Part shown: positions 25,805 to 63,913 of the stretch, piece by piece
Numbering within the stretch: position 1 is the stretch's first letter
Layout of the letters: each line of letters opens with the position of its first letter
The notes under the pieces: generated by a model
What the model was told of the DNA's origin: nothing
The model's database searches: none
The model's input: the letters and a program-made list of their open reading frames with translations, nothing else
Position numbers and translations under genes: made by a program
From: an uncultured Lachnospiraceae bacterium
GTDB taxonomy: Bacteria > Bacillota > Clostridia > Lachnospirales > Lachnospiraceae
Length of the DNA: 64,000 nucleotides
Reading direction: 5' to 3'
Assembly: GCA_950087855.1 (NCBI GenBank)
Contig: CATNAD010000005.1
Coordinates: 7,816-71,815 of the forward strand

Positions 25805-26668
25805 ATGAAAACGAAAGAGGCAGTTGCCACAGCCCTTGTCAGTATGCTTTTCCTTGCACCTGTCGGGTGCGGGGGCCGCCAGAAGGGGACAGACGGAGGA
25901 ACCCTGACGGTGCGGGAGACGGCAGTGGGCGAGAGATTCCCGGACAGTCGGGAACGCACTGTGGCTTCTCCAGAACGTATGCGGCCAGAGAAGGATGCCG
26001 AGGCCCCGGAAACGGATTCCCGGTCGGAAACAAAAGCAGTTCCGGAAATAGAGGAGAGTTTGACGGCAGAAAAAAGAGATACCGGACATTCTTCTGATGG
26101 GCGGGCAGGATCAGAGGGCAGTACAGCGGAAAAGGGGAGGGAGAAGCAGCTTTGGGCGCCGGAGCCGGCAGAAACAAAACATTCCCCGGAGGTGTTCGGA
26201 AAGACGGGGACATCGGCAGCCGGACCGGCAGGGCCTGTGGAACAAGAAGTGCCGGTTTCCGGGTCCTCTGCGGAGACGGAGCCGCCTGCCACAGAGCCGC
26301 CTGTCCCGACTGAGCCTCCTGCTCCTGTGCCAGAGGAGACAGAGCCGCCAAAGCCGAAGTCCATCTACGATCAGGACTTTGACATCGGGGCGATCCGCCA
26401 GGAATTAATCTCCATCGGTGAAGGGCTGGGACTTACCCATGTCACGGAGGATGACGGGATTCCCTGTACGCCGGATACCTGCTCCTGGGCCTCGCCGGTT
26501 ACAGCCTCGGCTTCCTTCCAGGGAGAGCGGCTCAAACAGGCCCTGCACGGCTATGTAACCTCCATGCCGTCCATGGTCGCCTCCTATGGAGGCCCGCAGA
26601 TTTCCTGCTTTACCATCTATGTGCGGGACAACGGAGGCGGAAGCTACACATTTTATTTTCTATATTGA
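25805..26668 (+). CDS. Putative lipoprotein, Pro/Glu/Thr-rich linker plus C-terminal globular domain
   Basis: The signal peptide MKTKEAVATALVSMLFLAPVGC has a lipobox-like VGC. AGGAGA RBS before the ATG at 25805. Confidence 0.6.
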   Translation: MKTKEAVATALVSMLFLAPVGCGGRQKGTDGGTLTVRETAVGERFPDSRERTVASPERMRPEKDAEAPETDSRSETKAVPEIEESLTAEKRDTGHSSDGRAGSEGSTAEKGREKQLWAPEPAETKHSPEVFGKTGTSAAGPAGPVEQEVPVSGSSAETEPPATEPPVPTEPPAPVPEETEPPKPKSIYDQDFDIGAIRQELISIGEGLGLTHVTEDDGIPCTPDTCSWASPVTASASFQGERLKQALHGYVTSMPSMVASYGGPQISCFTIYVRDNGGGSYTFYFLY

Positions 26669-26792
26669 CAACGAATGGAACACCCGGACAAAGGCTCCCT
26701 GCAGACTGCAGGGAGTTTTGCCGTATAGGAAGCTTCGTCCCTATCCGGCAGAAGCTTTCCGGGACTTTATTTCAGAGAAAGGTTTGATCCAG

Positions 26793-29700
26793 ATGAAAAA
26801 AATGAGGAAAAAAGGGAAACGGCTGCTGGCGTTGTTTTTGAGCCTGCTGACGGCCATGAGCGCCCTGCCCATGGTCGCACTTGCGTTTACGCCGCAGGAG
26901 GGGCAGACGGTTTACTCCTTTGATGGAGTCGAATATCAGGGATCTGATGGCCGGACTTATGCATTAGGCCCCCGCCATTATATCCTGTACGACGGGACGG
27001 GAAATGTGAGGGCAGAGTATTCGGAAGGCGGGGACCCTTACAAAAAGCACATGATCCGCAGTGCTGACGGCGGGGAACGCCATGTGTACTGTATTGAATC
27101 CGGGATTCCCTATGCGCCGGACGGGACCGGTTATGTTTCGCAGAACGGGGCCAATAGTAATTACTTCCAGCAGCTCCCGTATCCGGCTCAGTATGGAATC
27201 ATGCTGACCAGCGTTTATGGGTGGCAGCCCGGAAAGGCGGTCCCGGTCGCCGGCTGCAACGAGGACGACTACATGATTGCCACGCAGACGCTCCTTTGGG
27301 AATACCAGCAGCAGATCCGAACCAGTCCGTCCGATCTTCATGACAATGCCTACGGAGTGGAGGCGGGTGCCATCCTGCAGATGATCGACAGCCGCCCGGC
27401 CAGGAGGTGTTACGACTGGATGTTGGCTCAGATGGCAAAGCATACGACGATTCCCAGCTTTGCCGCCAGCCGCAGCAGCCAGGCGGCGGTTCATACTTTG
27501 AAGTATGATACAGCGGCAAAGAAATACACCCTGACCCTGGAAGATACGAACCATACGCTGAATGACCTGAGGTTTGTAAATGGGAATGGAATCACGGTGA
27601 CCAGGAATGGGGTCCGCTACACCTTTACCAGTGACCGGATGCTTCCGGACGCAGTCACGGTCACGGCGAAAAAGGACATCCCCGAAGTGAGGGATGACAT
27701 GCTGATATGGGGAGCCGGCGGCTGGCAGACCATGCTGTGCGGCTCTGAGGACCCGGTGGTGTTTTATCTCAAGCTCCGGACGGAGACCACGGGGATTGGC
27801 CGTATCGTGAAGCATTCCGAGGATGGGGTGGTGGAACAGGTCCGCTTTACGGTTTCCGGCAATGGGATTCAGGAGACGGTGGCCACGAAAGCGGACGGTA
27901 CGGTGGACCTGGAGCTTCATCCCGGCGTCTATGACGTGACAGAGCTTTCTGAGGAAAAATATGAGCCGCAGGAGGTACAGCGTGTGACCATCGTGAGCGG
28001 TGGTACGTCTACGGTGACCTTTGACAATACCTTGAAACGGGGAAGCCTTACGGTAACCAAGACCTGCGAGGACGGGCTGAGCGAAGGAATCCGGTTCCGC
28101 CTTTCCGGAACTTCCCTTTCCGGCCTTACGGTGGAGGAATATGCCGTGACGGACAGCCGGGGCATTGCAGAATTTAAGAATGTCTTGATTGGCTCCGGCT
28201 ATGTGCTGGAGGAAGTGGAGCCGGCTGTCCGCTACGTCGTCCCGGAAAAGCAGACGGCGGCCATTGAATGGAATCAGGTGACGAAGAAGTCTTTTCACAA
28301 CGTGTTAAAGAAATGGCAGCTCACGGTGAAAAAGAGTGACGGGGAGACCGGGACCGCACAGGGAGACGGGAGCCTTGCCGGGGCGGTTTACGGAATTTAT
28401 CAGAATGGGAAGCAGATTGACACTTATACCACAGATCAGGACGGAACCTTTACCACGAAGGTTTATCCTTGCGGGGAGGGATGGAGCTTAAAGGAAGAGG
28501 TTGCCAGCGAGGGCTATCTGGTGACGTCCGGAAGCACACCCATCGGGGCAGAGGCGGAACATTATACCGCAGAATATAACCGCCTTTCTTTGGAAGTGAC
28601 GGAACAGGTGCTGAAAGGGAGGATTGCCCTCATCAAGCACTGCGATGACGGAGAGACTCAGATTGAAACGCCGGAGGCGGGGGCTGAATTTGAAGTATAT
28701 CCTAAAAAATCAGGTTCCTACGGAGACGCAAAGGAGGCAGAACGGGATTTTCTCACTTGCGACGAAAATGGCTTTGCACAAACCAAGAACCTGCCGTATG
28801 GCATTTATACCGTAAAACAGACCAAGGGCTGGGACGGCAGGGAGCTGATGGACGCTTTCGACGTGTTTGTGAATCAGGACGGAGAGATTTTCCGCTTCCT
28901 GATCAACAATGCGCCCTTCCGGAGCCGGATTCAGGTCGTTAAGACGGACGCAGAGACCGGGAAGCCGATTCCCTATGCAGGGGCCGGGTTTCAGATTTTC
29001 CGGCCGGACGGGAGCCTGGTGGAGATGACCTACACCTACCCGGAGGTTACGAGGATTGATACGTTCTACACGACAGAAGAAGGAATGCTCATCACCCCGG
29101 AGCCATTGGAGTATGGAACCGGCTATACGTTAGTGGAGGTGTCTGCCCCTTATGGTTATGTGTTAAACAGCGATCCGGTTCCCTTTGACGTGACGGAGGA
29201 AGGGTCCTCTGAGGAAGGGGAGGTTACGGTTATCCGGGTGGAGCGGCCGAACCTGCCGCAGAAGGGGATCATCACGGTGAAGAAATCGGGGGAGGTGTTC
29301 GCTTCCGTCACTGTCATTGGCGGCGGAGCGGTAGATGAGGACGGGGCGGAGACGGTGTCTCCGACTGTGTACCAGCCGGTCTATGCAGAGCAGGGACTGG
29401 CAGGCGCTGTGTATGAGGTGTCTGCGGCTGAGGATATCGTCACACCGGACGGTACCCTCCGTTATGAAAAGGGGAAGGTGGTAGCCAGGCTTACAACGGA
29501 TGAAAGCGGAACCGCCATGACGGAGCCGTTATATTTGGGAACCTATGAGGTGCGGGAAATGGAAGCGCCGGATGGCTTTGTGTTAAACGGGGAGCCCTGC
29601 AGCGTGGAACTTTCCTATGCCGGGGAAGCAGTGGCGGTCACCGGGGCGGAGGCCGGATTCCACAATGAACGGCAGAAAGCAGAAATCAGCCTGGAAAAGG

Positions 29701-31229
29701 TTCTCGCTGAGGATGAGCGGTTTCAGATTGGGCTTCAGGATGAGATCCTCTCTGTGCAGTTTGGTTTGTTCGTGGCGGAGGAGTTAAAGGCGGCGGATGG
29801 CAGCGTGATTCCTGCAGATGGCCTCCTGGAGCTTGTGAACTGCTCGGAAGATGGAAGTGCCTCCTTCCGGACGGACCTCCCTGTGGGAGCCAGCTTGTAT
29901 GTAAAAGAGCTGCAGACAGATGACCATTATATCCTTTCCGGTGAGACGTACCCGGTCGTCTTTGATTATGCAGGGCAGGAGACGGCCCTGGTGGAGCTTC
30001 GGGTACAGGATGGGAGCGTAATTGAAAACGACCTGATTTATGGCCAGATCCGGGGATTAAAAACCGACCGGGAGACCGGAGAAACCATTGAGGGGGCATT
30101 GTTCGGCCTTTTTGGACCGGAGGAAGGGGAGTTTACGGAAGAGAGCGCCATCCTGACGGCCCGCTCCGACGGGGAAGGCGTGTTCCTGTTTTCGGATGTT
30201 CCTTTCGGGAGCTGGGTCATCCGGGAGCTTGCTCCCGCAGAAGGGTTCCTGCCCTGCACGGACCTTCACCATGTGCAGGTGGAGCGGGAGGGTCAGCTCG
30301 TTGAACTTTCTGCAGTGAATGACCGGGTGCCGGAGATCGGCACGAGGGCAGAGGTGGACGGAAAGAAAGAGATCTGTGCGACGGAAGTGTTCACGCTCAC
30401 GGACACCGTATCCTATGCCCATCTGATTCCGGGAAAGGAATATACGGTGACGGGTGTTCTGATGGACAAGGCTTCCGGAAAGCCCCTGGTTCTTTCCGGG
30501 TCGGAGATTCGGTCAGAAGTGCTGTTCGTCCCGGAGGAACCGTCCGGAGAGGTGCTGGTAGAGTTTTCGTTCGATTCCAGAAACCTTCGGGAGGATGTGG
30601 TACTCGTGGCTTTTGAGAGCCTGTCCCTGGAGGGAAAAGAGCTTGCCGTCCATGCGGATCTTTCGGACGAGGACCAGACGGTCCGGGTGAAGGCACCGAA
30701 AATCGGGACGGTTGCCACCGTGGATGGAAAGAAGGAAATCACCGCAGAGGGGACGGTAACGGTGGAGGATACGGTAACCTATGAGAACCTGACGCCGGGA
30801 AAGGAATATACCGTGAAAGGCGTCCTGATGGACAAAGGGACCGGGACGAAACTGGTGGTCGACGGAGAGGGGGTAGCTGCAGAAGCGACCTTCACACCGG
30901 ACAAAGAATCCGGGGAAGCGGCGGTGTCCTTTTCTTTTGATGTGGGCAATCTGACGAAGGACTTGGAGATTGTGGCTTTTGAGACGCTGTACCGGGACGG
31001 AAAAGAGATTGCGGCCCACGCAGACCTTTCTGATGAAAGCCAGACGGTGGCGGTCCGGGTTCCCAAGCGGCCGGAGACCCCGGAAAAACCCAGGACTCCG
31101 GATGTGCCGCTGACTGGCGATCAGGAGGCTCCCGGCTTCTGGCTGGGCCTTACGGCCATCGCCCTGGGAGGGCTGGCCGCCATCCTCATTCTTTATCTCC
31201 GGATGGAAAAGGACGAGGAGGGCGAATGA
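26793..31229 (+). CDS. Sortase-anchored surface adhesin: thioester (TQXA-type) domain + Cna-B/SpaA-like domains + VaFE repeats
   Basis: Signal peptide MKKMRKKGKRLLALFLSLLTAMSALPMVALA. The Cys of HVYCIESG (TGT 27090-27092) and the Gln of IATQTLLWE (CAG 27285-27287) fit a Cys-Gln thioester domain. There are many SpaA/Cna-B-like segments and two ~120-aa VaFE-type repeats (VAFESL, VAFETL). The C-terminus has VPLTG (31104-31118), a TM helix and a charged tail. Confidence 0.85.
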   Translation: MKKMRKKGKRLLALFLSLLTAMSALPMVALAFTPQEGQTVYSFDGVEYQGSDGRTYALGPRHYILYDGTGNVRAEYSEGGDPYKKHMIRSADGGERHVYCIESGIPYAPDGTGYVSQNGANSNYFQQLPYPAQYGIMLTSVYGWQPGKAVPVAGCNEDDYMIATQTLLWEYQQQIRTSPSDLHDNAYGVEAGAILQMIDSRPARRCYDWMLAQMAKHTTIPSFAASRSSQAAVHTLKYDTAAKKYTLTLEDTNHTLNDLRFVNGNGITVTRNGVRYTFTSDRMLPDAVTVTAKKDIPEVRDDMLIWGAGGWQTMLCGSEDPVVFYLKLRTETTGIGRIVKHSEDGVVEQVRFTVSGNGIQETVATKADGTVDLELHPGVYDVTELSEEKYEPQEVQRVTIVSGGTSTVTFDNTLKRGSLTVTKTCEDGLSEGIRFRLSGTSLSGLTVEEYAVTDSRGIAEFKNVLIGSGYVLEEVEPAVRYVVPEKQTAAIEWNQVTKKSFHNVLKKWQLTVKKSDGETGTAQGDGSLAGAVYGIYQNGKQIDTYTTDQDGTFTTKVYPCGEGWSLKEEVASEGYLVTSGSTPIGAEAEHYTAEYNRLSLEVTEQVLKGRIALIKHCDDGETQIETPEAGAEFEVYPKKSGSYGDAKEAERDFLTCDENGFAQTKNLPYGIYTVKQTKGWDGRELMDAFDVFVNQDGEIFRFLINNAPFRSRIQVVKTDAETGKPIPYAGAGFQIFRPDGSLVEMTYTYPEVTRIDTFYTTEEGMLITPEPLEYGTGYTLVEVSAPYGYVLNSDPVPFDVTEEGSSEEGEVTVIRVERPNLPQKGIITVKKSGEVFASVTVIGGGAVDEDGAETVSPTVYQPVYAEQGLAGAVYEVSAAEDIVTPDGTLRYEKGKVVARLTTDESGTAMTEPLYLGTYEVREMEAPDGFVLNGEPCSVELSYAGEAVAVTGAEAGFHNERQKAEISLEKVLAEDERFQIGLQDEILSVQFGLFVAEELKAADGSVIPADGLLELVNCSEDGSASFRTDLPVGASLYVKELQTDDHYILSGETYPVVFDYAGQETALVELRVQDGSVIENDLIYGQIRGLKTDRETGETIEGALFGLFGPEEGEFTEESAILTARSDGEGVFLFSDVPFGSWVIRELAPAEGFLPCTDLHHVQVEREGQLVELSAVNDRVPEIGTRAEVDGKKEICATEVFTLTDTVSYAHLIPGKEYTVTGVLMDKASGKPLVLSGSEIRSEVLFVPEEPSGEVLVEFSFDSRNLREDVVLVAFESLSLEGKELAVHADLSDEDQTVRVKAPKIGTVATVDGKKEITAEGTVTVEDTVTYENLTPGKEYTVKGVLMDKGTGTKLVVDGEGVAAEATFTPDKESGEAAVSFSFDVGNLTKDLEIVAFETLYRDGKEIAAHADLSDESQTVAVRVPKRPETPEKPRTPDVPLTGDQEAPGFWLGLTAIALGGLAAILILYLRMEKDEEGE

Positions 31230-41081: not shown

Positions 41082-43928
41082 ATGGCACGTCTGGTAACGA
41101 AGTTCAAATACCTGAAGCCGGATCAGGAAAAGCCCATCGGTGGATATGTCACCTACATTGCCACCCGTGAAGGAGTGGAAAAAATCGACGAGTCCTTCAG
41201 GATGGCTCCAGCCAGCAGAAAACAGAAAAAGCTCATTGAAAAAATCCTGCGGGATTTTCCGGACAGCAAAGGAATGCTGGAATATGAAGATTATAAAAGA
41301 GAAATGACGGTGGGAGCAGCCTCTGAGTTTATCATTCGTGCCATCGAGGACAACGCCTGTGAGATTCTGAATCAGAAAACCTATGCCGACTACATTGGCA
41401 CCCGAAAAGGTGTGGAACGGTTCGGCAGCCATGGTCTGTTCACAGACGACGGCGTGCAGGTCAGACTGAACGAGGTCTCACAGGAACTAAATACTCATGG
41501 AGGAAATGTGTGGACACTCATCGTCTCTCTGCGCCGGGAGGATGCGGAGCGCCTTGGGTTCAACAATGGTATCCGATGGCGGGATATGCTGCGGACACAG
41601 ACGGAGACGCTGGCCGACAGTTTAAAAATCCCTATGGAACACCTGCGCTGGTATGCGGCTTTCCACAATGAAAGCCACCATCCCCATGTTCATCTGCTGG
41701 CCTACTCTACTGTGGAGAACGAAGGCTTCCTCACGAAGCAGGGTGTCCATAAGGTGCGCTCTTCTCTGGCAAAGGATATTTTTTCACAGGATCTTCTATG
41801 CATGTATGAGAAACAGACTACCCATCGGGATGAACTGCGCCTTAAAAGCAGAGAATGGATTGCAAAGATTGTATCCAGCATAAATGCCGGAACCTATGAC
41901 AATCCCGAAATCGAAGAGCGGCTGTTACGTCTGGCTGAACGGCTATCCAGGACGAAGGGGAAGAAAGTGTATGGATACCTGAAAGCGGATGTGAAAGCCC
42001 TGATCGACTCCATTGTTGACACCCTGGCGGAGGATGAAAGAATCGCCGCTCTCTATCACCTGTGGTACGAACAGAGGGAGGCGGCCAGACGGGTTTACAC
42101 GGAGGCCCCGCTGGAGAGGGTGCCTCTTTCACGGAACAAGGAATTTAAGTCAATAAAGAATGCCATCATCCAGGAGGCTCTTGGCCTTCACGCCGACCAG
42201 GGAGAGATGGAAGATGGGGAACCGACCGACATATCGGAAAGGGAATTGCCAGAAGAATCGGAACTCATGTTATCCGGCCAGGAAGAACTGATGGAGACAG
42301 AGGTGCCGGAGGATTCCGCTTTTTCTTTCTCCGGAGGATGGAAAAAGAAGAAAGATACCTGGTGGACGGAAGAATATAAGAAAGCAAGGACTTTTCTTTA
42401 TGGCACCAAAGAGTCAAAACCTGACTTTGAAAAAGCCTACGCCGGCCTGGAGGAAGAAGCAGTCCGTGGAAACGGTTTCGCTATGTATGACCTTGGAAAA
42501 ATGTTCCTTTCCGGCCTTGGGTGTGAAAAGGCAGAACAGGCTGCACAGAAATGGTTTGCGGACGCTTATCGTGCTTTTATGGACAGAGAATCACGGGAAG
42601 AAGATCCTGGCTATCTGCAGTATCGGATTGGAAAGCTCTATTCGTTCGGACATGGCGTGGAACAAGATGATGGGAAAGCGGCCAAGTGGTATGAAAAATC
42701 TGTTGCAGAGAAGAATCCTTTTGCCGCCTATGCCCTTGGAAGTCTCTATTACCGGGGGCAGGGCGTGGAGCAGGATGAAGAAAAAGCGTTCCGGTTGTTT
42801 ACGATTGCGGCCAATGACAAAGATAAGCCAAACGCCTATGCCCAATATGAGCTTGGCCGGATGTGCAGAGATGGAATCGGAACGGCTCCGGACAAAGAGG
42901 TCTCAGAGGACTGGTACCGTAGGGCTTATCAGGGTTTCCTTTCCATTGAACAGAATATGGCAGATGATAAGCTCTATTATCGCCTGGGCCAGATGAATCT
43001 CACCGGTACGGGAACTGAAAAAAATTTGGAACTGGCCGGGACATATTTTGAAAAGGCCGCCGAACTGGACAATGCGGATGCCTTGTATGGGTTGGGAAAA
43101 CTATACTTGAACCGGGAGTTTACTGGACGAGATGGAAATCGTGCCGTGGAATTTCTCGTGGCGGCGGCAAAGAAAGACCATGATTATGCCATGTACCTGC
43201 TGGGAAAGTTATTTCTGGAAGGAAACGAGGTGCCGAAGAATCCGGGCTATGCGTTGCGATGGTTGGAAGAAGCGGCAGAAAAAGAAAATTCCCCTGCAGA
43301 GTGCCTTCTTGGGAAAACGTTGCTTTTGGGGAAAGAGATAGAGCAGAACATTCCTCGTGCCCTTTTCCTGCTGGAAAAATCCACTGCGAGAGGCAATACC
43401 GGCGCTGCCTATGTTCTCGGAAAAGTGCTGTTGGAGGGCGAGAGGTTTCCGCAGGATATTCCAAAGGCCATGGATCTGCTTACCTTTTCCGCAGAAAAAG
43501 GATGTTCTGCGGCACAGTATCTTCTTGGAAAGCTTTATCTGGCCGGGGAAGGAATTTCAAAAGATGTCAATGTCGCTCTGTACTGGTTTCAGAAGGCCGC
43601 AGAGCAGGGCCATTCTTTTGCAGGCTATCAACTTGGAAAATTATTTTTCTATGGCCGGGAGGTGGCGCAGGACATGGAAAAAGCGATTTCTTTTTTGACG
43701 GCTTCGGCCAGTCAGGGAAACGCTTATGCGGCGCAGCTACTTGCCAGGATCAGAAGCAACCGGAACTGGCCGGCGTCCCTCGGAAGCCTGCGCCTTTTGC
43801 TGTATTTGGCCAGAATATTGCAAAACCGCATTGAAAATGACCGCAGGGACGTGACTGGCGGCGTAGACTGGAAGCTCAGACATAAGATAGATGAGAAGAA
43901 ACAGGCCCATGGCTTAAAACAGGGCTGA
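41082..43928 (+). CDS. MobL/MOBP-type relaxase fused to a long Sel1-like repeat (SLR) array
   Basis: The N-terminus LVTKFKYLKPDQEKPIGGYVTYIATREGVEKI and the histidine cluster HNESHHPHVHLLAY mark the relaxase. The C-terminal ~500 aa carry more than 10 Sel1-type repeats (A.YDLGKMFLSGLGCEKAEQAAQKWF and similar). Confidence 0.85.
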   Translation: MARLVTKFKYLKPDQEKPIGGYVTYIATREGVEKIDESFRMAPASRKQKKLIEKILRDFPDSKGMLEYEDYKREMTVGAASEFIIRAIEDNACEILNQKTYADYIGTRKGVERFGSHGLFTDDGVQVRLNEVSQELNTHGGNVWTLIVSLRREDAERLGFNNGIRWRDMLRTQTETLADSLKIPMEHLRWYAAFHNESHHPHVHLLAYSTVENEGFLTKQGVHKVRSSLAKDIFSQDLLCMYEKQTTHRDELRLKSREWIAKIVSSINAGTYDNPEIEERLLRLAERLSRTKGKKVYGYLKADVKALIDSIVDTLAEDERIAALYHLWYEQREAARRVYTEAPLERVPLSRNKEFKSIKNAIIQEALGLHADQGEMEDGEPTDISERELPEESELMLSGQEELMETEVPEDSAFSFSGGWKKKKDTWWTEEYKKARTFLYGTKESKPDFEKAYAGLEEEAVRGNGFAMYDLGKMFLSGLGCEKAEQAAQKWFADAYRAFMDRESREEDPGYLQYRIGKLYSFGHGVEQDDGKAAKWYEKSVAEKNPFAAYALGSLYYRGQGVEQDEEKAFRLFTIAANDKDKPNAYAQYELGRMCRDGIGTAPDKEVSEDWYRRAYQGFLSIEQNMADDKLYYRLGQMNLTGTGTEKNLELAGTYFEKAAELDNADALYGLGKLYLNREFTGRDGNRAVEFLVAAAKKDHDYAMYLLGKLFLEGNEVPKNPGYALRWLEEAAEKENSPAECLLGKTLLLGKEIEQNIPRALFLLEKSTARGNTGAAYVLGKVLLEGERFPQDIPKAMDLLTFSAEKGCSAAQYLLGKLYLAGEGISKDVNVALYWFQKAAEQGHSFAGYQLGKLFFYGREVAQDMEKAISFLTASASQGNAYAAQLLARIRSNRNWPASLGSLRLLLYLARILQNRIENDRRDVTGGVDWKLRHKIDEKKQAHGLKQG

Positions 43929-54464: not shown

Positions 54465-54869
54465 ATGAATCAGGAAAAAATCAATGCAGTTAAGAAAATG
54501 ATGATGGACAGTGACGGCCGCCTTGGATATGTGTATCTCTATCCTTTGGATGGTGGAGAGAGAAAAGAATTCCTTTTTGAAATGACGCCGGAAAACATTG
54601 CGAATTTTATCGGTTCTCATCAGTGGGATACAGAAAAAATAATATTGACCGATATGCTGGATCGACTGCTCTTGGAAACAACAGGAGGTTTTATTTTTGA
54701 CTGCCCCGATCAGAATCTGTGCAGGGAGATTATTTCCTTCCTGGCTCCGATCCAGATGGGAGAAAGGGAAGCGAAACCATTTCCGATTATCAGCAACGAT
54801 GATTATGAAGAATACTGCAGGTTAGAAGATGTGGAAGTAACAGCGGCAGAATTGGGAATGCAGTTGTGA
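54465..54869 (+). CDS. Hypothetical protein immediately upstream of mazF (candidate non-canonical antitoxin)
   Basis: 134-aa acidic ORF ending 13 nt before the MazF start. It has no AbrB or RHH signature. Confidence 0.5.
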
Positions 54870-54882
54870 CGGGAGAATGTTC

Positions 54883-55218
54883 ATGGAAATTAGGCGAGGC
54901 GATATTTATTATGCGGATTTAAGGCCCGTTACTGGGAGCGAACAGGGAGGGATTCGGCCGGTCCTGCTGATTCAGAATGATGTGGGAAATCATTACAGTC
55001 CTACGGTGATCGTGGCGGCCATTACCGGCAGAAAAAAGCGGTGGATGCCAACCCATGTGAGTCTTTCCCGGCAGGAAGGGCTGTCAAGGAAGTCGTTTGT
55101 CATGTTGGAGCAAATCCGGACCATTGACCGCACACGGCTGGTCCGGTATGTCGGGAGTCTGGATGAATACAGCATGAAATCCGTTGACGCTGCGCTGGCG
55201 GTCAGTTTGGGACTGTAA
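54883..55218 (+). CDS. MazF/PemK-family type II toxin endoribonuclease
   Basis: [33 protein letters not shown]...[10 protein letters not shown]...THV...[16 protein letters not shown] is a canonical MazF/PemK pattern. An alternative ATG at 54877 lies too close to the RBS. Confidence 0.9.
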
Positions 55219-55575: not shown

Positions 55576-56850
55576 ATGGGAAAAGATCTAAAAGGAAGAG
55601 AATTGGGGAAAGGTCTGTATCAACGGAAGGACGGGCGGTATGAGGCAAGGACAAAGATTGGCGGGAGCGATGTCAGCATTTATGGGTTTAACCTGCGGGA
55701 ACTGAAAAGAGAATTTCAGGCGTTGAAGGAACAGACGGAAAATCAGATGGATTTTAGACGGAAACATTTGACCCTCGATGAGTGGTTTGAGGAATGGTTC
55801 CAGACTTATAAGCTCCCTGTAGTTAAAGAAACCAGCGTTTATCCCATGAAAAACAAATATTATGGCTCTTTTGGAAAATATTTGGGCGAGATGAAATTGT
55901 GTGAGATTACCAACATTGATATTCAGGATGTTATTAATCAGATGAAGCGTGAAGGCCGGGCGGTCTCCTCTATGAGGGAGGCACTGGGGCGAATGAGGGA
56001 ATGTATGGAATCCGCCAGGAATAACCTGATTATTCCCATGAATCCCTGTTTTGAGATTAGCGTCCCGTGGGAGAACCACCAGGTGACCCGCCGTTTCTTA
56101 TCCAAAGAGGAACAAAACAAATTTCTGCAGGCCGTAGAGCATAACTGGTATAAAGAAATGTTTTATATCATGTTTTTGACCGGAATGCGGGTCGGAGAGG
56201 TGGGGGGACTGATGTGGAAGGACATTGATTTCGATGAAAAATGTTTCCACATCAGTCGTTCCCTTTCCTGCCAGTATGAATACGGAAAAAAGATGCTGCG
56301 GCTCTTAAGCCCTAAAACCCACAATTCCTACAGGAAGATTCCATTTTTCGGGGAAGCAGAGGAAATGCTCCTGCAGCAAAAAGAAAAAGTTGCCAGTCTG
56401 AAAAAGGCCCTGGGGAATCGCTGGCGTGCAACAGGAGAATATGAGGGTCTGGTGTTTGTCACCACCATGGGCAGTCCGGTACTCCGCTATCATGCGGAAA
56501 AAGAAATCAAAAAAGTAGTAAAAGAGATCAACGAACAGGAAGCCTTCGAGTCCGTACAGGAGCAGCGGGAGCCCCATTATTTTGAGGACATGTATCCCCA
56601 TGCGATTCGCCACACCTTCTGCAGCCGCTGCTTTGAGGCCGATATGCAGCCCAAAGTGGTACAAAGTATCATGGGCCACCAGCATTACAGCACCACCATC
56701 GATATTTATACCCATGTATCGGAATTCAAGTACCAGGAAGAAGTCGGGAAGTTTGGGAGAGCAATGGAGCCTGGAGAGCCGGAGGAAGCCAATGAGGGAG
56801 AAGTGATGGCAGAGGAAGAGGCTGGAGGGATGGGACAGATATTGGGATAA
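55576..56850 (+). CDS. int: Tyrosine site-specific integrase (Tn916-Int-like, with N-terminal arm-binding-type domain)
   Basis: N-terminus KGLYQRKDGRYEARTKIGG. The catalytic residues appear in GMRVGEV (R), HAIRHTF (H-x-x-R) and GHQHYSTTIDIYTHV (H...Y). Confidence 0.9.
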   Translation: MGKDLKGRELGKGLYQRKDGRYEARTKIGGSDVSIYGFNLRELKREFQALKEQTENQMDFRRKHLTLDEWFEEWFQTYKLPVVKETSVYPMKNKYYGSFGKYLGEMKLCEITNIDIQDVINQMKREGRAVSSMREALGRMRECMESARNNLIIPMNPCFEISVPWENHQVTRRFLSKEEQNKFLQAVEHNWYKEMFYIMFLTGMRVGEVGGLMWKDIDFDEKCFHISRSLSCQYEYGKKMLRLLSPKTHNSYRKIPFFGEAEEMLLQQKEKVASLKKALGNRWRATGEYEGLVFVTTMGSPVLRYHAEKEIKKVVKEINEQEAFESVQEQREPHYFEDMYPHAIRHTFCSRCFEADMQPKVVQSIMGHQHYSTTIDIYTHVSEFKYQEEVGKFGRAMEPGEPEEANEGEVMAEEEAGGMGQILG

Positions 56851-56857
56851 TACGATA

Positions 56858-56886
56858 TTGTCTTTTTGTGGAAAATCTCGTATAAT
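56858..56886 (+). promoter_or_regulatory. Candidate sigma-70 promoter for the post-integrase cargo operon
   Basis: TTGTCT (56858-56863), a 17-nt spacer, then TATAAT (56881-56886), just after the int stop. Confidence 0.45.
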
Positions 56887-56909
56887 GTATGATAAGAAAA
56901 ATGTAGAAA

Positions 56910-57152
56910 ATGAAAGAATTTTTATACGATTTTATTGAAGGCGACTTTTCCGTGGCGACATCGAGTATTTTTGTCAACATGAAAATTACTGATCCTGAAA
57001 AGATAGAAGCATTTGTTGAGGCATTAGAGGCGTCAGCAAGAGAGCCGAGAAGAGTACCCACCGGGCCTATGAGTCCTGTAGTGACGGATGTAGAAGAGAT
57101 ACGAAAGCTTATGGCAGGAAAGCTGAAAGGTGGCGGAATTGATAATTGTTGA
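56910..57152 (+). CDS. Small hypothetical protein
   Basis: 80-aa ORF downstream of the candidate promoter. No motif recognised and no strong RBS. Confidence 0.4.
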   Translation: MKEFLYDFIEGDFSVATSSIFVNMKITDPEKIEAFVEALEASAREPRRVPTGPMSPVVTDVEEIRKLMAGKLKGGGIDNC

Positions 57153-57210
57153 AATTTTTAGCATATAGTTCGTCGTTGTCCATATATAAGAAAGATGGAG
57201 GAGGTCGGAG

Positions 57211-58704
57211 ATGTACAAAAGTGAGATTAGGCCATCACAAATTAAAAAATTATCCGAAAAAGTGAGAAGGTTAAATTATGAAAAATATTTATATAGAGTT
57301 AACCTGATTAAATGTAGAGCCTTTGAAGAGAAGGTGATTGAATTAGATTTTCCTGTTACGGCACTGATTGGACCTAACGGGGGAGGAAAAACGACCATTT
57401 TAGGTGCATGTGCATTACTATATGACTCAGTTGCACCAAGACAGTTTTTTACAAGAAATAAGCAATTAGATGAGGAAATGAGAAATTGGTCTATTACTTA
57501 TGATGCAATTGATAGAAGCAAAAGCAAGATGGCCCCAATTAAGAGGACAGCGTCATTTTCAAAAGAAAAATGGTATCGGGATGCGATAAAACGTGAAGTG
57601 CTTTTTTTTGGAGTATCAAGAACATTGCCTGCTGTTGAACGTAGAGATTTGTCAAGATTTACAAATAAAAATGTTGTTTTTGAGCCTACTAACATTAAAG
57701 TGTTAGGAGCTGATACGGCAAGATATATTTCTTGGATTTTAGGGAAAGATGTCAGTGCATATTCTATAGTTCAATCTGATGATTATGGAAATATAACGTT
57801 GTTGTCTGGCAGAACAAAGACAGGAAAAAGCTATTCGGAATTCCATTTTGGTGCAGGAGAGTCTAGCGTTATAAAGATGGTAATGAAGATTGAAGGAATA
57901 TCTGCACAGGGATTGATACTGATAGAAGAAATAGAGAATGGGTTACATCCGTTGGCAATATTACGATTGGTTGACTATTTAATAGATGTAGCTGACAGGA
58001 AAAGTATACAGGTGGTGTTTACAACGCATTCGGAATACGCAATTACACCATTACCGGCAGAGGCTGTTTGGGCGGCATTAGATGGTACAGCTATACAGGG
58101 AAAATTGGATATCCATTCTCTTAGAAGTTTAACAGGTGAAATTAATTCTAAATTAGTAGTGTATGTAGAGGATGATTTTGCAAAAGAATGGGTAGAAACT
58201 ATTTTTCGTTCAGACGAATTGATTGCCAGTGATGCAATAGAAGTGTATGCAATGGGGGGAGATGGAACAGCTGTTACTGCTAATAAATATCATAATTTGG
58301 ATCCCAGCAGTCAAGTAAAATCAATATGTATTCTTGATGGAGATTCCAGACAAATAGATAATGTGGAGGAAAATATATTTAGACTTCCAGGAGAAGCACC
58401 GGAATTGTGGGTGTTTAACCAAATTGTTGATAAATTAGAAGAGTGTTCTGGAATTTTAGCGGTTAGATTTATGAGGAAATTTTCAGAGGCAGAATTAATC
58501 AAAAAAATAATCCAAGACGTAAATAACACAAATCATGATCATCATTTATTATTTAACCAAATAGGCGAAAAAGTAGGATTTATCAATGAGAGTATTATAA
58601 GAGGTGCATTTCTATCGACTTGGTGTGAACAATATACTGAAGAGGTGCAATGTTTTATTGATAAAATTCAAGATATTCTCCCTAGAGTTGATGAAAGGAA
58701 ATAA
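57211..58704 (+). CDS. ABC-type (AAA_15/AAA_21-like) ATPase fused to a TOPRIM/DUF4435-like domain (OLD / fused-PARIS-like)
   Basis: Walker A GPNGGGKTT (54-62), signature-like FGAGESS, Walker B LILIEEIENGLHP and H-loop FTTHSE. The C-terminal half has LVVYVEDDFAKEW (E320) and ICILDGDSR (D376, D378), resembling TOPRIM/DUF4435. GGAGGAGG RBS. AT-rich. Confidence 0.8.
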   Translation: MYKSEIRPSQIKKLSEKVRRLNYEKYLYRVNLIKCRAFEEKVIELDFPVTALIGPNGGGKTTILGACALLYDSVAPRQFFTRNKQLDEEMRNWSITYDAIDRSKSKMAPIKRTASFSKEKWYRDAIKREVLFFGVSRTLPAVERRDLSRFTNKNVVFEPTNIKVLGADTARYISWILGKDVSAYSIVQSDDYGNITLLSGRTKTGKSYSEFHFGAGESSVIKMVMKIEGISAQGLILIEEIENGLHPLAILRLVDYLIDVADRKSIQVVFTTHSEYAITPLPAEAVWAALDGTAIQGKLDIHSLRSLTGEINSKLVVYVEDDFAKEWVETIFRSDELIASDAIEVYAMGGDGTAVTANKYHNLDPSSQVKSICILDGDSRQIDNVEENIFRLPGEAPELWVFNQIVDKLEECSGILAVRFMRKFSEAELIKKIIQDVNNTNHDHHLLFNQIGEKVGFINESIIRGAFLSTWCEQYTEEVQCFIDKIQDILPRVDERK

Positions 58705-58800
58705 TTGTAGAATTTTGGTGAAAATTAAATGCAAAGTGTCGGGAAGAGGGAGCTATAAAGTTTTTAATTTTTTGATACTGAGATATAGGAAATAAATCAT

Positions 58801-59742
58801 ATGAGCTTTGTATTTGCTATAAATGATGGTGAATTTTTGGTAGTATCTGACACAAAAATTGGAATAAACGAGAATCTCAGCCGGTTATGGAAGGATGAAA
58901 CTTCTAAAAATTTAATTAAACAGCTGGGAATGATAAAAAGTATAATTGTTTCTCCGCATATTGTCATCTCTTATGCGGGGAATAATATTGATAAAGCAGC
59001 TTTCTTGTTAAATGAGGTAAAAATAAAGAGTTATGACCTGGAAAAGATAATAAAAACTGCATTTGATATTCAGAGTTGTGCTCAGCCTGACGATATAGAA
59101 TTTATTATTGCTTATTATGAAGGCAGAGACCATAATGAACTGATTTCTATTAAAAATAAAGAGATTATCCGTAATTGTAAGAGAGCATGGCTTGGTTCGC
59201 ATGACGCATATAAAGAATTTATGCGTTTAGAACAGAAAATACCAGAAGAAAAATACAAAAATTCGGTAGTAACAGTTATAGACAATTCTACAGGTATGCA
59301 TCAGGAACGAATGGATGAGAAAATAGCATATGTGTACGAATTAGAAAATATTTTTGCTGCTGTTGTAAAGTCTGGAATAGATCCTTCTGTTGGAGGCAGT
59401 ATTGTAAGAGTAAAAATACCGGAGGGTGAAAATCATTTTGAGTATATGGGAGGTATAAGCTGTATATCCGGTGGTTGGTCGCAAGAAATTAAGCCCGGTG
59501 AAAATATTATGTTTTGTCAGGGACGAGAAGCAGGAAGCTTTTGTTGTAATATATATCAGTCTGAACAGGAATTTTGTTGCTATATTTATGAGGACGATTT
59601 AGGCATAGTGTATACAGATGAGGTTTGTTATTCGAGCGGCTTAGAAGGAATGAAATGTCCTAAACTCTATAAGATGGATAAACAAGAATTTGATAAAGTT
59701 GCCGCTGAAAAAGGAGCATACTCGTGTGTTGAGTTATGTTAG
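58801..59742 (+). CDS. Unknown protein; possible Ntn-hydrolase/proteasome-beta-like N-terminal half plus Cys-rich C-terminal region
   Basis: 313 aa. MSFVFAINDGEFLVVSDTKIG...IVISYAGNNIDKAAFLLNEV loosely parallels the HslV/proteasome beta N-terminal strands. The C-terminal 80 aa contain 10 Cys. Same strand as the ATPase and 96 nt downstream of it. Confidence 0.55.
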   Translation: MSFVFAINDGEFLVVSDTKIGINENLSRLWKDETSKNLIKQLGMIKSIIVSPHIVISYAGNNIDKAAFLLNEVKIKSYDLEKIIKTAFDIQSCAQPDDIEFIIAYYEGRDHNELISIKNKEIIRNCKRAWLGSHDAYKEFMRLEQKIPEEKYKNSVVTVIDNSTGMHQERMDEKIAYVYELENIFAAVVKSGIDPSVGGSIVRVKIPEGENHFEYMGGISCISGGWSQEIKPGENIMFCQGREAGSFCCNIYQSEQEFCCYIYEDDLGIVYTDEVCYSSGLEGMKCPKLYKMDKQEFDKVAAEKGAYSCVELC

Positions 59743-59944
59743 AGTTAATTAAATGCAATCTGGAATTTGACGGAGACTTTGGGACTGACAGATGAGTAAG
59801 TGATGGGGGCGTTGAAGATGCTGAAGACAGATGTAAATAATATATAGCAGTCTAAGAAAGAAAGTACAAGATTATCTCGTAACGAAATAGCGAGAAGCGT
59901 ATATAAAGATTTGAAGAGATAACAATTGAAAGGAAAAGAAGCCG

Positions 59945-61153
59945 ATGCAAAAGAAAAGGAATAGCTCTCCAATTGTTGTAAGCTCACATAATGTGCATTT
60001 GGATTCTGATTATGTACAATGGATCTATGATATTAAGGAACGTTTCCGAAATACACAGATAAAGGCGGCTATAAAAGTAAATTCGGAACAGCTTTTGTTT
60101 AACTGGCAGTTGGGGCGAGATCTTGCCGTGCGTAAGGTGGAAGAAAAATGGGGAAATGGTATCGTTGAGCAGCTGAGCCTTGACCTAAGAAATGAATTTC
60201 CAGATACAAAGGGTTTTAGTACCACGAATCTTTGGTACATGAAAAAGTGGTATATGTTCTATGCGAATGATGTAGAAAAACTTCAACAGCTTGTTGGAAA
60301 AATGGAAGTACAGATTTCGACGCTGCAGCTAAGAATGGAGCAAATTGGAAAAAATATGAGTGAAGAAAAACTCCAACGGGTTATTGGAGAATTTTCATTT
60401 CCCCCTTTCTTTTCGTATGTTCCATGGGGACATCATATTGATATTATTACAAAGTGTGATTCTATAGAAGAGGCACTATTTTATATATACAGAACGATAG
60501 AGGAAGGTTGGAGCAGGAGTACTCTTCAGAATTGTATTAAGTCTGGGCTATACAGAAGAACTGGGACCGCCATTACAAACTTCAGTGAAAAATTGCCTGC
60601 TATTCAGGGAAAACTGGCGCAAGAAATTACAAAGGATACTTATGATCTGAGCTTTATTACTTTGCCGGCAGATTACGATGAAGCAGCATTAGAAGCGGCT
60701 TTGGAGCAGAATATTACCAGATTTTTGTTGGAACTTGGAACTGGATTTGCATTTGTTGGGAGACAGAAGGAAATCGTGGTTTCAGGAAAAACCCGTAAGA
60801 TCGATATGTTGTTTTATCATATCCGCCTTAAGTGTTATGTAGTGGTTGAACTGAAAGCAGTTTCTTTTGAGCCGGAATTTGCTGGAAAACTGAATTTTTA
60901 TGTAAATGCGGTGAATGATCTTATTCGGACTCCAGATGAAAATCCTACAATCGGATTGCTGATCTGCAAAGATAAGGATCAGACCGAAGTACAGTGGGCA
61001 TTTCAGGGAATCCAGACGCCTATGGGTGTTGCCTCTTATGATAATATTAAATTGGAGGAAATTAAAAAGCAGTTGCCTTCTGAGAAAGAAATTCAGCGGC
61101 GGATTGAATTAGCAGAAGAAGAATTTAATTTGAACAGGCTGAAGAAAAAATAA
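59945..61153 (+). CDS. DUF1016 / YhcG-family PDDEXK nuclease-fold protein
   Basis: The N-terminus YVQWIYDIKERFRNTQIKAAIKVNSEQLLFNWQLGRDL...GFSTTNLWYMKKWY is typical of DUF1016. The PD-(D/E)xK core lies in KIDMLFYH...YVVVELK. Confidence 0.85.
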   Translation: MQKKRNSSPIVVSSHNVHLDSDYVQWIYDIKERFRNTQIKAAIKVNSEQLLFNWQLGRDLAVRKVEEKWGNGIVEQLSLDLRNEFPDTKGFSTTNLWYMKKWYMFYANDVEKLQQLVGKMEVQISTLQLRMEQIGKNMSEEKLQRVIGEFSFPPFFSYVPWGHHIDIITKCDSIEEALFYIYRTIEEGWSRSTLQNCIKSGLYRRTGTAITNFSEKLPAIQGKLAQEITKDTYDLSFITLPADYDEAALEAALEQNITRFLLELGTGFAFVGRQKEIVVSGKTRKIDMLFYHIRLKCYVVVELKAVSFEPEFAGKLNFYVNAVNDLIRTPDENPTIGLLICKDKDQTEVQWAFQGIQTPMGVASYDNIKLEEIKKQLPSEKEIQRRIELAEEEFNLNRLKKK

Positions 61154-61265: not shown

Positions 61266-61446
61266 AAAAACAGGACACCCCTCACCTCCGCATAAATCCG
61301 ACACTTTCCGGAAAAGTTCGCAAAGCAGATGATCAGTAGAAATTTGTCGAAATTAGGCGAATAGAGATAAGAAAAACCCTTGTGGATGGTGCGAAAATGC
61401 CATTTACAGGGGTTTTGATGTTAGAAACCGCATTCTATAACTTCAG

Positions 61447-62300
61447 GTGGATTTGTGTAATGTTTTTGGAGATGATTTGGGAAAAACAAACTACCAAAAA
61501 GGAGTGTGGGAGGACCGAAAGCTGGGAGATACCTTAAAAGAATCGGTGATCCAGGTCATTTACGGGGAGGCGCTGCGTTCCGCAAAGCCTGTGTTCTGCA
61601 TTGTGGATGATACGATTTCTTTCCGGACTGGGCATCAGTCGGTGTCTGTGATGCTTTCCTGTAACGGGATTGTCCTGAATTACGCCGTGATCCTGTACAA
61701 TAAATCCGTCTGGATGCTGCGCAAACGAAATCCAAGATAAAGATCGTACAGGACATTGTAGAGGAGCTCCTGATCCTGCCTGTTAATTCCTATTTTCTGC
61801 GTGATAGTTGGTATACCTCCGCAGCACTCATGGATGCCTTTGTCAAAAAAGGCTTTGATACCATTGGAGCCATTCGGACAAACCGCATCCTCTATCCCCA
61901 AGGTTTCCGGCAAAAGATCCGGGAGACTGCCCTCCTTTTACAGAAAACAAAGGCTGCTTTCCACCTCGTGATTGTCGGAAGCAGGAGTTATTATGTGTAT
62001 CGGTATGAAGGGAATCTCCATGGGGTGGAGAATTCCGTGGTCCTGATTAGTTATCCTAAAGAGGCATTCCATGATCCGAAGGCCCTTCGTGCCTTTATCA
62101 GCACGGATGTTTCCCTAGGCACGGATGAAATCCTGAACAAATATCTGGAACGGCGGCCGATCAAGATCTTTTTTCGGCAGAGTAAGGACCGTCTGGCATT
62201 CGACCGGTATCAGATCCGTTCCTCCAAAGGGATCCAGAGATTAATCCGGGCCTTTATTTTGAAACCACATGTAAAAACAGCAAAAATGAATCTGCCGCTC
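61447..62300 (+). pseudogene. Decayed DDE transposase (IS701/IS4-like) remnant
   Basis: The reading frame is split near 61740. DDE-type segments are present: FCIVDDTISF, and RDSWYTSAALMDAF (partly read in-frame upstream of the 61830 ORF). The third motif reads YLERRPIKIFFRQSK where W and E are expected (RWxIExFF), so it looks degenerate. Confidence 0.6.
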
Positions 62301-62381
62301 CACGAAATTTCATTCATTAAAGCGACAACCCCATTTGCCGGTTTTTTGCCCTTGTTTTCGGCTTTTTGGTACATTTTGCAG

Positions 62382-62410
62382 TTGCGTTATCCATACCGTT
62401 ATATTATAAT
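62382..62410 (+). promoter_or_regulatory. Candidate sigma-70 promoter of purF
   Basis: TTGCGT (62382-62387), a 17-nt spacer, then TATAAT (62405-62410), about 60 nt upstream of the purF ATG. Confidence 0.4.
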
Positions 62411-62470
62411 TTATTCGTGTTTTGTGGCGGACGGTCTTATTGGAGCAGCTTGAGGGAGAGGATGACGTTT

Positions 62471-63913
62471 ATGAGCGGACAGCCGGAGAAAGAAACAGAG
62501 GAGCTTCATGAGGAATGCGGTGTATTTGGAGCCTATGATCTGGACAGGAACGATGTGGCCCACACCATTTATTACGGCCTTTTGGCTCTCCAACACAGAG
62601 GGCAGGAAAGCTGCGGTATTGCAGTCAGTGATACGGAGGGGCCGAAGGGGCAGGTGAAGACTCACAGAGGGATGGGGCTGGTCAATGAGGTGTTTACGGC
62701 AAGAGAACTGGAGGCCATGGGCCATGGAAACATTGGCGTCGGCCATGTCCGGTATTCGACAGCAGGAGCCAGCACCGGGGAGAACGCGCAGCCCTTGGTG
62801 CTGAACTATATCAAAGGGACTCTTGCCTTGGCCCATAACGGAAATTTGGTGAATACGCCGGAGCTTAAGAGAGAATTGGCCCGTGACGGGGCAATCTTTC
62901 AGACCACCATCGATTCTGAGGTGTTGGCCTATCATATTGCGAGGGCGAGGGTGCGCTGTCCTTCAGTGGAGGAAGCCGTGAGGCTGGCGGTGAAAAAGAT
63001 GAGAGGTGCCTATTCTCTGGTGATCATGAGCCCGAGGAAGCTGATCGGTGTCCGCGATCCCTTTGGTTTCCGTCCACTTTGCATCGGGAGACGGGAGAAT
63101 GCCTATTTCCTGGCCTCCGAATCCTGCGCTTTGGACACGATAGGTGCGGAGTTTGTCCGGGATGTTCGGCCAGGGGAGATTGTCTGCATCACAAGAGAGG
63201 GGATCCGGTCGGATACCAGTCTGTGCGGTTCGGTGCGGAGAGAAGCAAGATGCATATTTGAATATATCTATTTTGCGCGGCCCGACACAAGGCTCGACGG
63301 CATCAGCGTGTATGAAGCCAGGCTGGCGGCCGGGAGGTTTTTAGCCAAGGACCATCCGGTGGAGGCCGATCTGGTGGTGGGTGTTCCGGAGTCGGGCAAT
63401 GTGGCCGCCCAGGGCTATGCGGAAGAGTCCGGTATTCCCTACGGAACCGCATTTGTAAAAAATAGTTATATGGGCCGGACGTTTATCAGGCCCAGTCAGA
63501 AGAATCGGGAGTCCGCCGTGCAGGTCAAGCTCAATGTACTGAAAGAGGCGGTTGCGGGAAAGAGGATTATTATGGTGGATGACTCCCTGGTTCGGGGGAC
63601 CACCTGTGGACGAATTGTGAGGATGCTCCGGGCAGCCGGGGCAGAGGAGGTTCATGTGCGGATTTCTGCACCACCGTTCCTCCATCCCTGTTATTTTGGT
63701 ACGGATATTCCTTCTGAGGATCAGCTTGCCGCCCATGACAGGACCGTGGAGGAAATCAGGAAGGAGATTTCTGCAGACAGCTTGGGTTATCTTAAGCTGG
63801 AACGGCTTTCTGAAATGGTGAATGGGCTTTCCGCCTGTGCCGCCTGTTTTGACGGAAATTATCCCGTGGCTCCTCCGACGGAGGATATCCGCGGAGAGTT
63901 TCTATACCCGTGA
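62471..63913 (+). CDS. purF: Amidophosphoribosyltransferase
   Basis: The CGVFGA N-terminal nucleophile region, LQHRGQESCGIA, the PRPP-binding loop IIMVDDSLVRGTT and a C-terminal Cys cluster. The ATG at 62471 sits about 9 nt after GGGAGAGG. Confidence 0.95.
   Translation: MSGQPEKETEELHEECGVFGAYDLDRNDVAHTIYYGLLALQHRGQESCGIAVSDTEGPKGQVKTHRGMGLVNEVFTARELEAMGHGNIGVGHVRYSTAGASTGENAQPLVLNYIKGTLALAHNGNLVNTPELKRELARDGAIFQTTIDSEVLAYHIARARVRCPSVEEAVRLAVKKMRGAYSLVIMSPRKLIGVRDPFGFRPLCIGRRENAYFLASESCALDTIGAEFVRDVRPGEIVCITREGIRSDTSLCGSVRREARCIFEYIYFARPDTRLDGISVYEARLAAGRFLAKDHPVEADLVVGVPESGNVAAQGYAEESGIPYGTAFVKNSYMGRTFIRPSQKNRESAVQVKLNVLKEAVAGKRIIMVDDSLVRGTTCGRIVRMLRAAGAEEVHVRISAPPFLHPCYFGTDIPSEDQLAAHDRTVEEIRKEISADSLGYLKLERLSEMVNGLSACAACFDGNYPVAPPTEDIRGEFLYP

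Follow-up and report, generated by a model that had tools for sequence, protein, structure and literature searches.

We analysed a window of 64,000 nucleotides from an uncultured Lachnospiraceae bacterium (assembly GCA_950087855.1, contig CATNAD010000005.1, positions 7,816 to 71,815 of the forward strand) and focus here on the genes that follow its tyrosine integrase. We judge it fairly probable that the cargo slot next to the integrase of a Firmicutes conjugative element is occupied, at 56.86-61.15 kb, by a low-GC accessory islet with three independently mobile single-gene modules. These would be a defence gene of the HEC-04/IbfA family, a 313-residue N-terminal nucleophile (Ntn) hydrolase and a YhcG-type candidate assigned to PDC-S02. 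The first, an ATPase-TOPRIM protein, is already known; what is newly noticed is the defence-island habit of the second one's proteasome-like family. More tentatively, this family, which spans about 665 clusters at 50% identity, may be a previously unrecognised stand-alone anti-phage or anti-mobile-genetic-element gene with a proteasome-like Ser1 active site. The islet features on which the argument turns are:

57211-58704, + strand: HEC-04/IbfA-family ATP-binding cassette (ABC) ATPase-TOPRIM protein, 497 aa (PADLOC profile, Pfam, motifs)
58711-58800, + strand: intergenic leader that travels with the 313-aa gene and not with HEC-04 (breakpoint in the related locus L035), with a weak promoter-like site at 58772-58800
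58801-59742, + strand: Ntn-hydrolase-like protein, 313 aa (AlphaFold2 (AF2) and Foldseek)
58801-59475, + strand: predicted proteasome-beta-like Ntn-hydrolase domain, residues 1 to ~225 (AF2, Foldseek, conservation)
59506-59739, + strand: predicted C-terminal domain of beta-sheet plus helix, residues 236-313 (AF2)
59945-61153, + strand: YhcG/DUF1016 PD-(D/E)xK gene (Pfam YhcG_C 7e-56, DUF1016_N 1e-36; PADLOC PDC-S02 2.5e-135)

Judged by its sequence, the 497-aa gene is a further member of a described single-gene defence, and neither PARIS nor a new architecture. Its match to the PADLOC HEC-04 profile (PDLC04149, E 3.3e-210) places residues 1-492 on profile positions 1-491 of 494, and the PADLOC profile for the retron ATPase-Toprim_I-B matches over residues 209-484 (E 2.3e-18). 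All the motifs that an initial annotation of this DNA had quoted can be located: those of an ABC-type ATPase with its Walker-A lysine, GPNGGGKTT (54-62, K60), FGAGESS (213-219), LILIEEIENGLHP (235-247) and FTTHSE (270-275), and the TOPRIM E...DxD residues in VYVEDD (E320) and LDGDS (D376, D378), which together with the profile coverage point to a C-terminal metal site. The Pfam families proposed there for a check were recovered in part, with matches to AAA_21 and AAA_15, besides AAA_23 and SMC_N, and none to DUF4435 (E<=1) or Toprim_Old. In print, HEC-04 protects E. coli as a single gene against several phages, and its activity is lost upon the substitutions K62A or E319A/D375A/D377A (Payne et al. 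2024 preprint, 10.1101/2024.01.29.577857), which the substitutions proposed in the initial annotation (K60, E320, D376/D378) mirror. IbfA, a HEC-04 homologue on IncI1 plasmids, aborts infection by a P22-like phage (PMC12111858). Given a full-length match and a published, validated single-gene system, we regard the 497-aa gene as already known. It is solitary in the sense of that system, as its homologues of 40-84% identity in seven loci stand among differing neighbours, none of them a homologue of the 313-aa partner.

The window protein and HEC-04/IbfA have in common the layout of an ABC ATPase with a C-terminal TOPRIM domain, the Walker-A lysine, the E...DxD site and the occurrence as a solitary gene on a mobile element. 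They differ in that the window protein comes from a Firmicutes integrative and conjugative element (ICE), is only ~40% identical to enterobacterial IbfA-like proteins and is not embedded in a Hma system. By analogy with these homologues, an ATP-dependent sensor would activate or position the fused TOPRIM nuclease and so bring about abortive infection, and this would need the Walker-A lysine and the E...DxD metal site, as has been shown for the homologues. The resemblance to PARIS or OLD proteins that had been suggested for the 497-aa protein does not hold. PARIS, class 1 OLD, Gabija GajA and the type I-B retrons do share the combination of an ABC ATPase and a TOPRIM domain with it, but their ATPases are structurally distinct from that of HEC-04 (10.1101/2024.01.29.577857), and the AriA, GajA, Old and PtuA profiles match it only at a short stretch (~50 residues) around the Walker-B and signature motifs. 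We thus rejected an identity as PARIS, for which the AriA profiles match only residues 213-277 and Pfam finds no DUF4435/AriB, and as class 1 OLD or GajA, for which the matches (Old 4e-11, GajA 1e-13) cover ~45 residues each (232-279).

No profile library recognises the 313-aa protein, with nothing significant in Pfam, NCBIfam, PHROGs or PADLOC, in line with its earlier placement outside annotated families. Its AF2 model, built on an alignment of the close clade, has a pLDDT of 87.4 and a pTM of 0.86, and a Foldseek search of the PDB with this model returned 660 matches at E<=1e-3, the best 50 of which all belong to the 20S proteasome and are mostly beta subunits (E 5e-7, probability 1.0, TMt 0.60-0.67, ~230 aligned columns). 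Phage HslV-like proteins were matched in the viral structure library BFVD. The model thus has the alpha-beta-beta-alpha core of the proteasome fold, as the initial annotation had proposed when it compared the N-terminal half with proteasome-beta/HslV-type Ntn hydrolases and named Ser2 as a possible nucleophile.

Sequence comparison is far quieter. The Pfam Proteasome family (PF00227) does not match the window protein and matches one of 68 relatives, at 1.5e-3; a search of PDB sequences with the family profile gave no significant match, and a LytM match from that search (E 0.06) was dropped as insignificant. With hhalign, the close-clade profile found neither T. acidophilum beta nor E. coli HslV at significance (both reference sequences were checked against the PDB); the wider profile aligned weakly with E. 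coli HslV in the correct register (E 0.007, probability 5.5%) and not significantly with T. acidophilum beta.

The family itself is large. About 50 close relatives (48-60% identity, ~312 aa) come from Lachnospiraceae, Oscillospiraceae and Clostridia assemblies and carry no family name, and an exhaustive profile search extended these to 665 clusters (50% identity) at E<=1e-3, mostly of 280-295 aa and some of 365-503 aa, which are named only 'hypothetical protein' or 'TPR repeat protein'. A scan of 68 relatives found TPR repeats in 16. The family lacks a model in PADLOC v2, and tblastn with the 313-aa protein found no match among PLSDB plasmids or INPHARED phages. One sequence of 417 aa, P0045, was considered as a fusion of an ATPase with this partner and rejected: it joins a RecF-like N-terminus, which is not HEC-04, to a fragment of an Ntn homologue from about residue 96, and probably reflects a chimeric assembly or the junction of a deletion. 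Such a sequence could mislead searches for domain architectures.

The active site is where conservation concentrates. In a wider alignment of 68 sequences at ~20-30% identity, drawn from the ~665 related clusters, D17, K46, G132 and V197 are invariant, and conservation reaches at least 90% at T18, G43, A59, G60, F101, K118, W130, G245 and P287. At residue 2, 66 sequences have Ser and the other two Thr, always directly after Met1, and G60 is kept in 65 of 68. The residues and their proteasome equivalents, assigned by the order of strands and helices, are:

S2: start of strand 1 (the strand begins at residue 3); equivalent of Thr1
D17: end of strand 2; equivalent of Asp17
K46: just before strand 4; equivalent of Lys33
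G60: after strand 5; equivalent of Gly47
S133: after strand 9; equivalent of Ser129

An initiator methionine is removed when a small residue follows it, and Ser or Thr would thus be the first residue of the mature chain. Ser2 is therefore the likely nucleophile among the candidate catalytic residues, the others being Asp17, Lys46, Gly60 and Ser133. In the mechanism that we infer, methionine aminopeptidase would expose Ser2, whose free amino group and hydroxyl would, with Asp17 and Lys46, attack a peptide or amide bond, while Gly60 would form the oxyanion hole. Taken together, the model and the predicted active site support the assignment of the 313-aa protein as a proteasome-beta/HslV-type Ntn hydrolase.

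Around this core the protein carries additions. A two-helix insert lies at ~residues 24-42, at the S3/S4 site, where connectase carries the lid that specifies its substrate (PMC8665760), and a hairpin of residues 156-170 is inserted between the core helices H3 and H4, a position at which inserts are thought to block ring stacking (PMC8665760). By analogy, these inserts and the C-terminal domain suggest that the protein does not assemble into a ring or barrel. The C-terminal 78 residues modelled alone reach an AF2 pLDDT of 86 and have no fold match in the PDB (all E>1) and no zinc-fold match; in relatives this domain is replaced by TPR repeats or extended by them. The tail had been described as holding ten cysteines within its last 80 residues and as possibly metal-binding. 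The count is nine (of 12 in the whole protein), and the cysteines are specific to the lineage: in the wider family the positions of Cys248, 249, 259, 260, 309 and 313 hold T, S, A or I or are gapped, and C126 is the only one at least 90% conserved, and that only within the close clade. As the cysteines are not conserved in the wider family and no conserved Cys/His ligands were found, the C-terminus holds no conserved metal site and we rejected a Cys-rich metal-binding domain. The two-helix insert, the hairpin and the C-terminal domain or TPR repeats point to a specific, non-barrel peptidase with a defined protein target.

Compared with proteasome beta, HslV, Anbu, BPH and connectase, the 313-aa protein shares the core fold and the conserved residues at the Thr1/Ser1, Asp17, Lys33 and Gly47 positions. 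Like connectase and the PMI, FC4, RPC and DAH groups, it has inserts at S3/S4 and H3/H4 and an extra C-terminal domain. It differs in having no significant sequence similarity to PF00227 or to solved structures, in a C-terminal domain without a matching fold and in a putative nucleophile that is Ser in place of Thr. Fuchs, Alva & Lupas described 22 new families of proteasome homologues, with five Firmicute clusters and PMI groups that have multiple insertions, and found no informative genomic context for them (PMC8665760). The 313-aa family, compared with these by description only, may be one of the 22; it likewise lacks a propeptide, but unlike them it sits in defence islands.

This genomic setting is what suggests a role for it. 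Among the homologues, immediate or near neighbours include IetA/IetS (in two loci), PDC-M36A, a PDC-M54A-like gene, a SIR2-like/PDC-S72 gene, an ApeA-like HEPN gene, PDC-S01 and a retron-type reverse transcriptase (RT). Further neighbours are Abi_2, HEPN_Apea and BrnT; GmrSD-HNH, methyltransferases and a CBASS CD-NTase with Cap15; and Fic, as well as PRTase with DprA/SLOG. Other homologues are cargo of Tn7-like transposons, stand at the integrase end of an integrative mobilisable element (IME) at guaA, after an HTH_XRE gene (L036-L040), or, in one case, lie between a relaxase and NikA/MobC. Overall, recognised defence genes lie within four genes of the homologue in about nine of the 16 distinct contexts, and about four others are mobile-element cargo. 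Because the family adjoins so many unrelated defence genes, we infer a stand-alone defence or conflict effector, which would cleave a phage or host protein on infection.

In one locus, a type I restriction-modification (RM) system, hsdR-hsdM-hsdS, effectively has a family member appended to it: the gene for this 502-aa protein, which carries TPR repeats at its C-terminus (L041 6001-7509), begins 4 nt ahead of the hsdS stop. The only recurring neighbour within the close clade is a 511-aa SIR2-like protein that matches PADLOC Aga_SIR2, PDC-S50 and PDC-S72; it is encoded two genes downstream of the Ntn gene, after an open reading frame (ORF) of 202-227 aa, at L002 2067-3602 and L006 9573-11108. 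The Ntn gene is split into two ORFs by a frameshift or stop in two of ten genome loci (L004 676-1596, L006 7974-8940), so some lineages appear to be losing it.

Peptidases have been met in defence islands before. The subtilase IetS, the retron RT-protease and Lit are likewise thought to act upon infection, and IetAS itself neighbours 313-aa homologues in two loci; they differ in having Ser-His-Asp or metallo active sites in unrelated folds, where the 313-aa protein has a predicted Ntn Ser1, and no ATPase or RT partner is conserved beside it. We found nothing relevant in the literature that links proteasome-like or Ntn hydrolases to phage defence.

The initial annotation had read the 497-aa and 313-aa genes as a new combination, in which a HEC-04-like sensor-nuclease would work with the Ntn hydrolase as its effector or regulator. 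The two genes are on the same strand, 96 nt apart, with similar GC (0.347 vs 0.341) and no terminator-like site between them. Neighbourhood data, however, largely refute a two-gene system, which we regard as very improbable. None of ten genome loci with 313-aa homologues holds a HEC-04 homologue by tblastn, nor do these ten share any neighbour family; six further contexts also lack HEC-04 (0/16 distinct contexts in all). In the other direction, none of the seven metagenome loci with HEC-04 homologues holds a 313-aa homologue, with several kb downstream visible in three of them, and the HEC-04 homologues of 71% identity stand beside a type I RM system and have other genes downstream, with a 986-aa gene coming next. 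HEC-04 also works as a single gene (10.1101/2024.01.29.577857). Further evidence comes from L035, which is 98.2% identical to window positions 58711-60427 (leader, 313-aa gene and start of YhcG) and has unrelated DNA upstream, in place of the HEC-04 3' end. With the break in homology lying a few bases past the stop codon of HEC-04 (58702-58704), the two genes are separable modules joined by recombination. The adjacency is not conserved, and the two-gene combination is not real.

A looser tie, in which the hydrolase is a promiscuous downstream add-on that modulates or backs up HEC-04, retron-type RT, IetAS or type I RM in turn, we consider unlikely. The upstream gene is on the same strand in nearly all contexts and is often a defence gene: the Ntn gene overlaps hsdS by 4 nt in one context and follows a Schlafen-like fragment at a distance of 12 nt in another, overlaps a 1009-aa gene in L007, and comes after RT, IetS and PDC-M36A elsewhere. 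Such islands are collinear in general, so little weight attaches to the shared strand; upstream of some homologues there is only an HTH gene or small ORFs of no known family, and no mechanism is known that would let a single protease work with systems so unlike one another. Alternatively, the protein could serve the mobile element itself, as an ImmA-like anti-repressor protease, a regulator of excision or transfer or a metabolic amidase, and its closeness to defence genes would then reflect shared cargo slots only. The positions at the integrase end of the window ICE and of the IME, after its HTH_XRE gene, and those between relaxase and NikA/MobC and as Tn7-like cargo would suit this; against it, many homologues lie near RM, CBASS, IetAS or retron RT with no mobility genes nearby, no helix-turn-helix partner is conserved, and TPR fusions (16/68) are more typical of sensors in conflict systems. 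We therefore find service to the element quite unlikely. A further reading is a catalytically dead relic of the proteasome fold with a structural role only. Such a relic would fit the lack of a sequence-level match to active proteasome families, the Asp or Asn at the position of Ser133 (the Ser129 equivalent) in about a quarter of relatives and the poor conservation of D194, but near-absolute conservation, at 20-30% identity, of Asp17, Lys46, the AG(N) turn and an N-terminus of Met-Ser/Thr is hard to explain without catalysis and makes this reading highly unlikely.

Several points weigh against a set of independent modules that includes a proteasome-like defence gene. Co-transcription of the 313-aa gene with HEC-04 from the promoter at 56858 is possible, as no terminator-like site separates them. 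The defence-island habit is guilt by association, read from 16 contexts with no formal background control, and the neighbours in L001, L007, L008 and L046 carry no defence annotation. The proteasome likeness is, on the predicted model, one of fold only, with no Pfam or PDB sequence match, and the residue equivalences follow the order of secondary-structure elements instead of superposed coordinates. Family assignments, fold, conserved residues and the lack of linkage come directly from the analysis, and from these we extrapolate to the catalytic activity, oligomeric state, substrate and defence role of the 313-aa protein.

If the stand-alone defence role is true, the 313-aa family would supply the first defence effector with a proteasome/Ntn fold, with target recognition in a novel C-terminal domain or in the TPR repeats of longer relatives. 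Confirmation would bring an Ntn-type peptidase, or possibly a connectase-like ligase, into the known set of immune effectors and would imply a specific cleavage target in phage or host. The defence-island and cargo-slot context thus provides a testable hypothesis for the function of at least one branch of the orphan proteasome homologues.

The setting of the islet follows from the 50 kb that precede it, which Pfam reads as genes of a Firmicute conjugative element; the islet is therefore low-GC cargo between the integrase gene and the end of the element, in agreement with the initial annotation. The further features are:

55576-56850, + strand: tyrosine integrase (Pfam Phage_integrase 2.3e-27, Phage_int_SAM_3 3e-10), at the end of the conjugative element
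56858-56886, + strand: sigma-70-like promoter match TTGTCT-17-TATAAT, the top-scoring site (10/12) within 56.7-61.5 kb
56910-57152, + strand: 80-aa ORF, no family match
Element genes: SpaA/TQ/thioester adhesin, VirB4-like ATPase, CHAP hydrolase, MobL relaxase, DUF3991-Toprim primase, VirD4-type coupling protein, MazF toxin, Xis-like gene and tyrosine integrase

The integrase stop codon lies at 56850, and the cargo genes start directly downstream. The shift to AT-rich sequence past the integrase, noted earlier, is borne out, with GC of 0.469 in the integrase gene, 0.347 in the 497-aa gene, 0.341 in the 313-aa gene, 0.384 in the gene at 59945-61153 and 0.543 in purF (62366-63913). The three same-strand ORFs of 80, 497 and 313 aa lie where they had been placed, and the view of the integrase-proximal slot as a location for defence holds good, the slot being full of defence-type genes. 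The expected promoter is present too, but promoter-like sites in the region number 24 against 17 +/- 4.4 in shuffled sequence; as they barely exceed the expectation, it is suggestive and, by itself, weak evidence.

The 80-aa ORF has no match in Pfam, PADLOC or NCBIfam. At L031 1894-2771, a 61%-identical homologue of it and a 198-aa ORF overlap immediately ahead of an 84%-identical HEC-04, and the 80-aa ORF was not found upstream of the 71-76%-identical HEC-04 homologues; it seems to be the remnant first gene of a two-gene, perhaps toxin-antitoxin-like, module outside HEC-04. The fourth same-strand cargo gene, YhcG, had been missing from the initial annotation, and among the loci examined only the window and L035, its 98% relative, have it next to the 313-aa gene.

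Between the AT-rich cargo and purF, overlapping broken ORFs of intermediate GC (61382-62453) are perhaps what is left of an insertion sequence; a scan of one of them (61830-62453) gave no Pfam transposase match. No tRNA was found within the window. Just upstream of xis-int, in the region 54465-55218, a 134-aa ORF with no Pfam match precedes a MazF/PemK toxin gene (54877-55218, Pfam 2.9e-33), and the two are a probable toxin-antitoxin pair. Elsewhere on the ICE, a surface adhesin of 1547 aa (26586-31229) has SpaA, T-Q ester and thioester domains, and a MobL relaxase (41082-43928) is fused to six Sel1 repeats.

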